From: Escherichia coli
GTDB taxonomy: Bacteria; Pseudomonadota; Gammaproteobacteria; Enterobacterales; Enterobacteriaceae
Strand: one strand, 5' to 3'
Assembly: GCF_030013595.1 (NCBI RefSeq)
Contig: NZ_CP122768.1
DNA: 64,000 nt
In this document: positions 8,578 through 57,652 of the stretch, piece by piece
Numbering within the stretch: position 1 is the stretch's first letter
How the letters are laid out: every line of letters begins with the position of its first letter
Notes under the pieces: model-generated
Seen by the model: the letters and a program-made list of their open reading frames with translations, nothing else
Database searches by the model: none
Told to the model about the DNA's origin: nothing
Made by a program: the position numbers and the translations under genes

Positions 8578-9095
8578 TCTACTCCTGCCATCTGGATGAT
8601 AATCATTTCACGGAGAGAAGCACTCAGAAGTACCACTGAAGTATAGCTGGTGACCAGCTACTTACACATCTATTGCCATCCTGCTGATGATAAGTCGACA
8701 TTAGCCCTTCTGTCTATAAACGAAACAAAGGATAAGTTCAGGTTTTAAACACACTGCCAGGATAAAGTATTGTATACAGTATAGAAGAGCGTTATTGAAT
8801 GACATAAAAAACCAGACCTAATCCCTTATCCGGAAGATATATCAAATAAACGGGGAAAATGTATTAAGATGGCGTTCCTATTCTCTCCATCCCTGATGTC
8901 CACGTAACTCGTTATAGAATCAGAACGCCATCTGAATACACACAAAAAAGCTGACTTCACACCCTCCAGATGTGTGAACGCAGTGCCCGACCACGTGCTT
9001 TCGCAACCAGCACAAATCATTTTAAAGCATCGAAAAACGATCAGAATATATCAGAACTTCCTAGCATCCTGCTTGGCTTAGATATTAATCGAGGA

Positions 9096-50869: not shown

Positions 50870-51112
50870 ATCGTCACTTTTACTCTAAGAGCCTACCGCA
50901 GTAGGCGTAATTGTTGCAGTCAGTCTGGACATGGACAGCGCGGAGAAACCGGAGCGTACACAAGTACGTGAGGATTTCGAGCACTTCCCTGGGCCAAACT
51001 GACAAATAAAATAGCCTAATGGGACAGGCGCTAAGAAAATTGTTGCGCATTATAGCTAATAAGCGCGTCATGTCATAAAGTTGAGGGCTTATTTTCATTT
51101 GAGGACCGCACC

Positions 51113-52934: not shown

Positions 52935-53945
52935 TTAGATATGGGTAACGATTTCTTTAATCAGCGGCGGACCTTTAAAAATAAAACCAGAATAAATTTG
53001 CACCAGTGAGGCCCCCGCAGCAATCTTTTCACGCGCAGCGATAACCGAGTCAATGCCGCCAACACCGATGATCGGTAAGCGACCGTTTAATTCCTGTGAC
53101 AAGCGGCGAATAATTTCTGTGCTTTTTAACTGAAGCGGACGACCACTTAAGCCACCGGTTTGATCACAATTTTTCATTCCCTGAACCAGAGAACGATCGA
53201 GCGTGGTATTGGTTGCAATAACGCCATCAATATTATGGCGAACTAAACTATCGGCAACCTGGATCAATTCTTCTTCAGAAAGATCCGGCGCGATCTTCAC
53301 TGCGATCGGCACATATTTATGGTGCATCGCTTGCAAATCATTTTGCTTATTTTTAATCGCGGTTAAGAGATCATCCAGCGCTTCGCCATATTGCAGTGTG
53401 CGTAGTCCTGGGGTATTCGGCGATGAAATATTGATGGCGATATATCCCGCATAAGCATAGATTTTTTCCATACAAATCAGATAGTCATCTTTACCCTGCT
53501 CCACCGGCGTATCTTTATTTTTGCCGATGTTAATACCCAGGACGCCATCATAATGGGCTTTTTTTACGTTCTCTACGAGGTTATCAACGCCAAGATTATT
53601 AAAGCCCATACGGTTGATCAAACCTTCGGCATCTACCAGACGAAAGAGACGCGGCTTGTCATTACCTGGCTGTGGACGTGGCGTGACGGTACCGATCTCG
53701 ATCGATCCAAATCCCATCGCGCCTAACGCGTCAATGCACTCCCCGTCTTTATCAAGACCGGCTGCCAGACCAAGCGGATTTTTAAACGTCAGGCCCATGC
53801 AGTTAACAGGTTTCGCAGGCACTTTCTGCCGCACCAGTGCTTCAAACGGCGTTCCTGTAATACGGCGTAATTGCTGAAAAGTAAACTCATGAGCACGCTC
53901 TGGATCGAGCTGGAAAAGGGCTTTACGAACGAAGGGGTAGTACAT
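52935..53945 (-). CDS. pyrD: Dihydroorotate dehydrogenase (quinone)
   Basis: 336 aa from [21 protein letters not shown]. Confidence 0.95.
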
Positions 53946-54181
53946 GAACTCTCCTGGATTCCCGGTGTGCAAACCGGGGGCGTATTATGTGCGAGTTCGG
54001 ACCAAAAGGGAATTGACCTGTGGCAATAAATAGCAAACGTTTTCTTATTGCGCTTTTTTTATGCTTTTTTTGGCTTTTCTTCCTCAGATAAATCATTTCG
54101 ACTCGCGGACGCCCTCTGTCAGACTGACCGAATTGTTATCAATGTTAACAAAACAAGAACAATTGGTTATAAGGAGAGAGT

Positions 54182-54757
54182 ATGCGTGTCATCACCCTGG
54201 CGGGTAGTCCTCGCTTTCCTTCTCGTTCCAGCTCCTTGCTGGAATATGCGCGGGAAAAACTAAATGGCCTGGATGTAGAGGTTTATCACTGGAATCTGCA
54301 AAACTTCGCCCCGGAAGATCTACTTTATGCTCGTTTCGATAGTCCGGCACTCAAAACCTTCACCGAACAGCTGCAACAGGCCGATGGGCTGATTGTCGCC
54401 ACGCCTGTGTATAAAGCCGCCTATTCCGGTGCGCTGAAAACCCTGCTCGACCTACTGCCAGAACGTGCGTTGCAAGGCAAAGTGGTGCTACCGCTGGCGA
54501 CGGGCGGTACGGTGGCCCATCTGCTGGCGGTCGATTATGCCCTTAAGCCAGTTTTAAGTGCGCTGAAAGCCCAGGAGATCCTGCACGGCGTGTTTGCCGA
54601 TGACTCACAGGTGATTGATTACCACCACAAGCCGCAGTTCACGCCAAATCTGCAAACCCGTCTTGATACCGCGCTGGAAACTTTCTGGCAGGCGCTGCAC
54701 CGCCGCGATATTCAGGTTCCCGATCTTCTGTCTCTGCGAGGTAATGCCCATGCGTAA
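54182..54757 (+). CDS. ssuE: NADPH-dependent FMN reductase SsuE
   Basis: 191 aa; first gene of ssuEADCB. Confidence 0.95.
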   Translation: MRVITLAGSPRFPSRSSSLLEYAREKLNGLDVEVYHWNLQNFAPEDLLYARFDSPALKTFTEQLQQADGLIVATPVYKAAYSGALKTLLDLLPERALQGKVVLPLATGGTVAHLLAVDYALKPVLSALKAQEILHGVFADDSQVIDYHHKPQFTPNLQTRLDTALETFWQALHRRDIQVPDLLSLRGNAHA

Positions 54758-55708
54758 CATCATTCAACTGGCGCTGGCGGGATTACTTAGCGTCTCTACG
54801 ATTGCGGTTGCTGCAGAATCCTCTCCTGAAGCGTTACGTATAGGCTATCAGAAAGGCAGTATTGGTATGGTGCTGGCAAAAAGCCACCAGTTACTGGAAA
54901 AACGCTATCCGCAAACCAAAATCTCCTGGGTGGAGTTCCCGGCTGGCCCACAGATGCTGGAGGCGTTAAACGTTGGCAGTATTGATCTCGGCAGTACCGG
55001 GGATATTCCGCCAATCTTTGCCCAGGCTGCCGGGGCTGATTTGGTATACGTGGGCGTCGAGCCGCCGAAGCCCAAAGCCGAAGTGATTCTGGTGGCAGAT
55101 AACAGCCCGATCAAAACCGTAGCCGATCTTAAAGGTCACAAAGTTGCCTTTCAGAAAGGTTCCAGCTCGCACAATCTTTTACTACGCGCACTACGCCAGG
55201 CCGGGCTTAAATTCACGGATATCCAGCCCACTTACCTGACACCTGCCGATGCCCGCGCCGCGTTCCAGCAAGGTAACGTCGACGCCTGGGCTATCTGGGA
55301 TCCCTACTACTCCGCTGCATTATTACAGGGCGGCGTGCGGGTGCTAAAAGACGGCACCGATCTCAATCAGACCGGATCGTTTTATCTGGCTGCCCGTCCG
55401 TATGCAGAAAAAACGGCGCATTTATTCAGCGTGTGCTGGCAACCTTTAGTGAAGCCGATGCGTTAACCCGCAGCCAGCGCGAGCAAAGCATCGCTTTACT
55501 GGCAAAAACAATGGGCTTACCGGCACCGGTGATTGCCTCTTACTTAGATCATCGCCCTCCTACCACCATCAAACCGGTTAACGCCGAGGTTGCCGCCTTA
55601 CAGCAGCAAACGGCAGATCTGTTTTATGAAAACCGTCTGGTGCCGAAAAAAGTCGATATTCGCCAGCGCATCTGGCAGCCCACTCAACTGGAAGGAAAAC
55701 AATTATGA
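54750..55708 (+). pseudogene. ssuA: ssuA (aliphatic sulfonate binding protein) interrupted by an apparent -1 frameshift in an A-run
   Basis: Frame from ATG 54750 stops at 55464-55466 (..PYAEKTAHLFSVCWQPLVKPMR*); homology continues in the +1 frame (LATFSEADALTRSQ.. to 55708). One extra A in the A6 run at 55408-55413 would restore a 319-aa product. Confidence 0.6.
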
Positions 55709-56860: not shown

Positions 56861-57652
56861 ATGGCAACGCCAGTGAAGAAGTGGTTATTGCGCGTTGCCC
56901 CCTGGTTTTTACCGGTGGGCATCGTGACGGTGTGGCAACTAGCCTCCTCAGTTGGCTGGCTGTCGACGCGTATTTTGCCCTCTCCGGAAGGAGTGGTGAC
57001 GGCGTTCTGGACGCTCTCCGCCAGCGGCGAATTGTGGCAGCATCTGGCGATCAGCTCCTGGCGGGCGTTGATTGGCTTTTCAATTGGCGGATCGCTGGGC
57101 TTGATTTTGGGACTGATTAGCGGGCTATCTCGCTGGGGAGAACGGCTGCTGGATACCTCCATTCAAATGTTGCGCAACGTGCCGCATCTGGCGCTGATCC
57201 CGCTGGTGATTTTGTGGTTTGGCATTGATGAATCCGCAAAAATCTTTCTGGTGGCGCTCGGCACGCTATTCCCCATTTATATCAACACCTGGCACGGCAT
57301 CCGTAATATCGATCGCGGTCTGGTGGAAATGGCGCGTAGCTATGGATTATCCGGCATACCGCTGTTTATCCATGTGATCCTGCCTGGTGCCCTGCCCTCC
57401 ATTATGGTCGGCGTGCGTTTTGCGTTGGGCCTGATGTGGCTGACGCTGATTGTTGCCGAAACCATTTCTGCCAATTCCGGCATTGGTTATCTGGCGATGA
57501 ATGCGCGGGAGTTTCTGCAAACGGACGTGGTGGTGGTCGCCATTATTCTTTACGCCCTGCTCGGCAAACTGGCTGACGTCAGCGCACAGCTGTTAGAGCG
57601 CCTCTGGTTGCGCTGGAACCCGGCTTATCATTTGAAGGAGGCCACGGTATGA
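56861..57652 (+). CDS. ssuC: Alkanesulfonate ABC permease SsuC
   Basis: 263 aa from [15 protein letters not shown]. Confidence 0.95.

Follow-up and report, generated by a model that had tools for sequence, protein, structure and literature searches.

The locus lies in a stretch of an Escherichia coli chromosome 64,000 nucleotides long (the window), whose orientation is opposite to that of K-12. On the minus strand, pyrD occupies positions 52935 to 53945, with its ATG at 53945, and encodes a quinone-dependent dihydroorotate dehydrogenase of 336 amino acids (NCBIfam NF003644, 655.6 bits against a cutoff of 418). On the plus strand, ssuE, the first gene of ssuEADCB, runs from its ATG at 54182 to 54757 and encodes an NADPH-dependent FMN reductase of 191 amino acids (NCBIfam NF007859, 358.5 bits against a cutoff of 225). 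The amino acid sequences are 99.7% and 99% identical to those of PyrD and SsuE, respectively, in K-12. The two genes are read divergently from an intergenic region of 236 bp (53946 to 54181) which contains no fimbrial open reading frames, and the initial annotation, which had described them as adjacent and about 236 bp apart with no fimbrial reading frames, was exact in its coordinates. The neighbouring genes are rlmKL, ycbX and zapC on one flank, and ssuADCB and pepN on the other. Homologues of the Elf/Ycb proteins were not found in the 64-kb window using tblastn and blastn.

Both flanks contain small differences from related genomes. In the window, ssuA (54750 to 55708) is frameshifted at about 55408, where a run of six A residues is present in place of the seven in K-12 and in the near-identical NZ_CM149870.1, and the gene is split into open reading frames at 54615 to 55466 and 55433 to 55708. 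The frameshift could represent either a real pseudogene or a homopolymer sequencing error. The closest complete genome, that of the pig isolate HCP5S3_I2, has two differences from the window in 13.9 kb, and both inactivate ssu genes, one in each genome, ie the ssuA frameshift in the window and a TGG to TAG change in ssuC of HCP5S3_I2. The latter (position 57060 in the window, 10162 in L002) is annotated as an "internal stop" in HCP5S3_I2, and sulfonate utilisation may be decaying independently within one clone. On the other flank, approximately 140 bp between rlmKL and ycbX (about 50891 to 51030) are present in the window and in K-12, which has a spacer of 243 bp, and are missing in CFT073, where the spacer is 97 bp. 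Judged by eye, this segment resembles an intergenic repeat of the ERIC/IRU type.

At the pyrD side of the 236-bp spacer is the leader and core promoter region of pyrD (53940 to 54013, minus strand), which matches the full model (1-74) of Rfam RF02373, PyrD_leader, with 97.9 bits against a gathering score of 47. A hairpin at 53959 to 53980 is situated just upstream of the Shine-Dalgarno sequence, and the alignment shows the leader segment to be nearly invariant across genera. A leader of this kind, as in pyrC and pyrD, couples nucleotide-sensitive choice of the start site to translation. Direct reading of the sequence gives a PurR-operator-like box, TAGCAAACGTTTTCTT, at 54031 to 54046. It matches 14 of the 16 positions of the PurR consensus, ACGCAAACGTTTTCNT, and is a putative PurR box; PurR controls pyrD. 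Within it, GAAAACG(T/A)TTGC is kept across genera.

Next to this box are the central 69 bp of the spacer (54045 to 54113). They contain AAATGATTTAT (as read on the ssuE-antisense strand), which is the most widely conserved upstream block across genera. If a LysR-dependent promoter has its upstream activator (Cbl) site in this spacer, this is where the site would naturally be placed. The remaining 68 bp (54114 to 54181, plus strand) comprise the ssuE-proximal promoter, the 5' untranslated region and the Shine-Dalgarno sequence; this part is shared with K-12 (95.6% identity), is 100% identical in CFT073, and contains TAACATTGATAACAATT and CCTTATAAC, both conserved across genera. A scan of the 236-bp spacer for consensus sigma-70 promoters returned no sites, which is little informative and might be expected if the ssuE promoter is activator-dependent. 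The conserved blocks probably have regulatory roles.

The initial annotation had also stated that elfADCG-ycbUVF separates ssuE from pyrD in K-12, and the annotation of MG1655 agrees. There the order is ssuE (b0937), elfA, elfD, elfC, elfG, ycbU, ycbV, ycbF, pyrD (b0945), so that ssuE and pyrD are not adjacent, and the genes annotated between them are fimbrial only. The chaperone-usher fimbriae ELF/Ycb of this locus were reportedly described by Samadder in 2009 and by Korea in 2010 (as cited in PMC6896753 and PMC8281228). ELF fimbriae bind laminin. Using BLAST, the breakpoints relative to K-12 were placed at 54044/54045 and 54113/54114 of the window. On the pyrD side, homology to K-12 runs as far as the core of the PurR-like box, GCAAACGTTTTC (54033 to 54044), and ends at 54044. 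The central 69 bp have no match in K-12 and stand opposite 7,087 bp there, which comprise the elf regulatory region together with elfADCG-ycbUVF. Because the K-12 insertion starts exactly at the edge of the PurR-like box, the control of pyrD would be intact in both haplotypes.

The G+C content is 46.5% in the elf block and 27% in its upstream region, compared with 55.1% in ssu and 50.6% on the pyrD side. Low G+C (46.5%) is the sole sign of a foreign origin. Target-site duplications and terminal, direct or inverted repeats bracketing the K-12 breakpoints (7582 and 14668 in L001) were not found, and the block lacks the marks of a mobile island, ie an integrase or transposase, a tRNA target and flanking repeats. 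Local alignments with shuffled controls were made of the K-12 sequence immediately past the left breakpoint with the ancestral-type spacers (the window and about 75 other loci with a pyrD-start anchor), to see whether any homology is left. Nothing significant was obtained; the best z was 2.2, and that of the window was approximately 0. A motif of the type AAAT..ATTT is shared in the same register, and is too short and too AT-rich to serve as evidence. Inside the K-12 block, stretches of elfD and ycbF, both chaperone genes (8908 to 9055 and 14368 to 14515 in L001), are 74–88% identical at a constant offset of 5,460 bp, which is explained by paralogy inside the operon.

The arrangement in the window is not confined to one strain. 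Among 5,426 complete E. coli genomes, 1,352 contain the 236-bp spacer at full length, with at least 99% identity in 1,293 cases, and a junction-spanning query of 1.9 kb matched in one piece in 1,354 of the 5,426 and was split in two in the rest. CFT073, the B2 archetype, has ssuE, 236 bp and then pyrD. The elfC-elfG region of K-12 is present in 4,045 of the 5,426, and this class and the empty-site class sum to about 5,399, ie they are almost exact complements. This complementarity in the population suggests that elf is also absent elsewhere in the source genome, of which 64 kb are covered by the window. Chance is not at issue, since gene order is observed directly and is reproduced in 1,352–1,354 complete genomes. 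The adjacency could in principle have been created by mis-assembly, in which the operon was dropped from the source genome. Nothing specific speaks for this, beyond the thought that the homopolymer-length difference in ssuA could be a sequencing error, and it is extremely improbable given that the identical junction occurs in 1,352 independent complete genomes, CFT073 included, and that other species have an orthologous sequence at the junction.

Published surveys describe the same division. Ycb has been recorded in phylogroups A, B1, D and E, whereas B2 has Auf, which is related to Ycb and excludes it (Wurpel et al. 2013, PMC3559732). In another survey none of the 195 B2 strains had ELF, over 97% of the strains in A, B1, C, E and F did, and the authors concluded that it had been gained or lost several times (Clark and Maresso 2021, PMC8281228). 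A 2025 study found ycb in ST38 and not in ST69, both of phylogroup D (PMC12058657), and in a gene-content reconstruction the G/B2 (FGB2) lineage was scored as having "lost" ycb (González-Alba et al. 2019, PMC6896753). The elf-negative junction is thus a documented difference between lineages, the absence of ELF from B2 and from parts of phylogroup D being already published. The patchy distribution, with F and ST38 positive and B2 and ST69 negative, requires several events of gain, loss or recombination under any scenario.

Comparison with outgroups gives the polarity of the difference. A scan of species-representative genomes with PyrD as the query yielded 80 loci, among which E. fergusonii and the GTDB representative of E. 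coli were not included, so that the closest outgroups are only partly represented. According to tblastn, ssuE is directly upstream of pyrD in 69 of these 80 enterobacterial loci, in Citrobacter, Enterobacter, Kosakonia, Kluyvera, Cedecea, Buttiauxella, Trabulsiella, Leclercia and others. E. whittamii (L007) and two other non-coli Escherichia lineages (L004 and L005) each have a spacer of exactly 236 bp; that of the window aligns with all three without a gap, and has ordered conserved blocks in common with other genera. In the central 69 bp the window shows 100% identity to CFT073 and 91.3–95.6% to L005, L004 and L007, and 49 bp of the segment can be aligned with Citrobacter amalonaticus at 79.6%. 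The 69 bp were undetectable in all the elf-positive alleles examined, ie those of K-12, HS4, DETEC-P666 and E1V33. Deletion from a K-12-type allele cannot recreate 69 bp orthologous to those of outgroups, and the window must therefore hold an uninterrupted spacer of the ancestral type. The initial annotation had left the choice between a strain-specific deletion and an ancestral state lacking the operon. The second is upheld by a spacer that is homologous and colinear with those of the outgroups, and the first is not supported, as approximately 25% of complete E. coli genomes share the arrangement and the 69 bp are homologous to outgroup sequence.

In the same set of 80 loci the ssu operon has been eroded repeatedly across the Enterobacteriaceae. 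In E. albertii (L006), Salmonella enterica subsp. arizonae (L014) and others (L041, L060, L077) pepN is directly beside pyrD, and in Kluyvera, Phytobacter and their relatives (L055–L061, L065, L078 and others) ssuE alone is left of the operon.

A de novo deletion, in which an ancestor with the K-12-type order ssuE-elf-pyrD lost the operon spontaneously, would nevertheless have two points to its credit, in that the K-12 gene order is real and ycb has been described as lost in the G/B2 lineage (PMC6896753). It is very improbable when set against the central 69 bp, which no elf-positive allele examined contains and which are 91–96% identical in other Escherichia and partly kept in Citrobacter. 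A chance deletion would, moreover, have had to leave a spacer of exactly the 236 bp found in E. whittamii, L004 and L005, with no remnants of elf and no novel deletion junction. The flanking SNPs of the window are also those of the empty haplotype. SNPs linked to the two haplotypes separate empty from elf-positive alleles in the flanks, CTGACAGAGGG in the former corresponding to CTGTCGGAGAG in the latter, and TTTGC-TATTTATTG to TTTGCGYTTTTTTTG.

The elf-positive alleles have both junctions identical to the base in K-12, in the E. coli strains HS4 and DETEC-P666, and in Escherichia sp. E1V33. Their contents have diverged strongly. The elf operons of HS4 and DETEC-P666 are 93–95% identical to that of K-12, and the operon of E1V33 is 78% identical to it, although the flanks reach about 91%. 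The elf genes diverge far faster than their surroundings, by 22% compared with about 9% between K-12 and E1V33, and by 5–8% within E. coli. Outside Escherichia, three Pseudocitrobacter loci (L022, L025, L035) carry an elf-like operon of seven genes at the same site upstream of pyrD, with proteins 55–76% identical in amino acid sequence; the right junction is shared, the stop codon of ycbF being 13 nt before GAAAACGTTTGC. Pseudocitrobacter has no ssuADCB, and pepN abuts ssuE.

The shared junctions, the low G+C and the lack of flanking repeats in elf-positive alleles point to a single old event of insertion or replacement, as far as can be read from the sequences compared. On the simplest reading, the resulting allele has been passed on ever since, both by descent and through homologous recombination in the conserved flanks. 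As both haplotypes occur, with identical junctions, in different Escherichia species, it is conceivable that presence/absence polymorphism at the ssuE–pyrD locus is older than the species E. coli, a proposal which we put forward tentatively and consider rather unlikely. If it is correct, the whole cassette would have been either maintained over a long time or exchanged repeatedly by recombination in the flanks.

The position of the window strain within E. coli bears on how it came by its allele. Over the region compared, the window is about as distant from K-12 (97.1%) as from CFT073 (97.3%), and its ssu genes are approximately 95% identical to those of both. Its relatives at the pyrD–ssuE locus, at 99.4%, are NMBU-W13E19, WP8-S17-ESBL-12 and SCU-313, strains which have been listed as the database best matches of ST69 isolates, of phylogroup D (PMC7952442). 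On the basis of those matches the window strain probably belongs to a lineage resembling phylogroup D. Such a lineage might once have been elf-positive and have reverted by importing an intact empty-site allele from an elf-negative E. coli, through homologous recombination in the flanks. The spacer is 99–100% identical to that of CFT073, but ssuE and ssuA are only 95.7% and 94.6% identical, and the pyrD/zapC region of the window is 99.6% identical to that of the elf-positive HS4, a mosaic such as recombination typically leaves. Phylogroup D is itself split between elf-positive ST38 and elf-negative ST69 (PMC12058657). The high identity of the spacer may, however, reflect constraint and not recent transfer, because it is conserved between species too (94–97%, compared with approximately 88% for the flanks). 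Reversion of this kind is judged unlikely, and, even if it did occur, the allele would still be the ancestral, uninterrupted spacer, the matter concerning only the history of the lineage.

The conservation just mentioned is a property of the pyrD–ssuE spacer throughout Escherichia. Between species its identity of 94–97% exceeds that of the coding flanks (about 88–90%), which suggests that it is under dense regulatory constraint.

The window has in common with the empty-site class divergent adjacent genes, a spacer of about 236 bp and the central 69 bp. Its 236-bp interval is very probably an uninterrupted pyrD/ssuEADCB control region of the ancestral type, and represents the empty-site haplotype at a locus that has long been polymorphic for the presence or absence of elf/ycb. 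The direction of the event would be insertion and not loss. An AT-rich block of 7.1 kb, comprising the elf regulatory region and elfADCG-ycbUVF, would have been inserted once, between the promoter-proximal region of ssuE and the PurR-like box of pyrD, with displacement of the central 69 bp. The inserted haplotype would be the one now found in K-12 and in most A, B1, C, E and F strains, and the window strain would carry the version that never received the block. It cannot make ELF fimbriae from the pyrD–ssuE locus, and its pyrD leader, PurR-like box and ssuE promoter follow directly on one another within 236 bp, which is the arrangement of most Enterobacteriaceae.

The polarity is the only addition made here, and a small one: the elf-negative site is an intact ancestral control region and not the scar of a deletion. 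It qualifies gene-content papers in which ycb is scored as "lost" in elf-negative lineages, and makes K-12 the derived state for the region upstream of ssuE. Beyond correct annotation it matters little, as the absence of ELF (from all B2 and many phylogroup D strains) has already been used in surveys of fimbrial profiles and vaccine targets. The Cbl and CysB sites of K-12 ssuE lie upstream of the −35 region. If the tentative proposal of a polymorphism older than E. coli is correct, a corollary would be that the upstream activators of ssuE, as studied in K-12, bind DNA that came with the insertion and has no relation to the ancestral 69 bp, and control of the sulfonate operon could differ between elf-positive and elf-negative lineages.

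Compared with the window, K-12 MG1655 has in common the flanking genes, the 99 bp next to pyrD (with the leader, promoter and PurR-like box) and the 68 bp next to ssuE, at 96–99% identity, and differs in what lies between these two segments. CFT073 has the same gene order and the same 236-bp spacer, with 100% identity in both the central 69 bp and the ssuE-proximal 68 bp and 99% in the pyrD-proximal 99 bp. It is nevertheless not a close relative of the window, the overall identity being 97.3% over 30 kb and that of the ssu genes only 94–96%. Although the sequence of the other Escherichia and Enterobacteriaceae (E. whittamii, Citrobacter, Enterobacter, Kosakonia, Kluyvera and others) has diverged from that of the window outside the conserved blocks, and several of the genera are without part or all of the ssu operon, they resemble the window in having divergent ssuE and pyrD, separated by a spacer of 236–256 bp in which the blocks follow one another in the same order.
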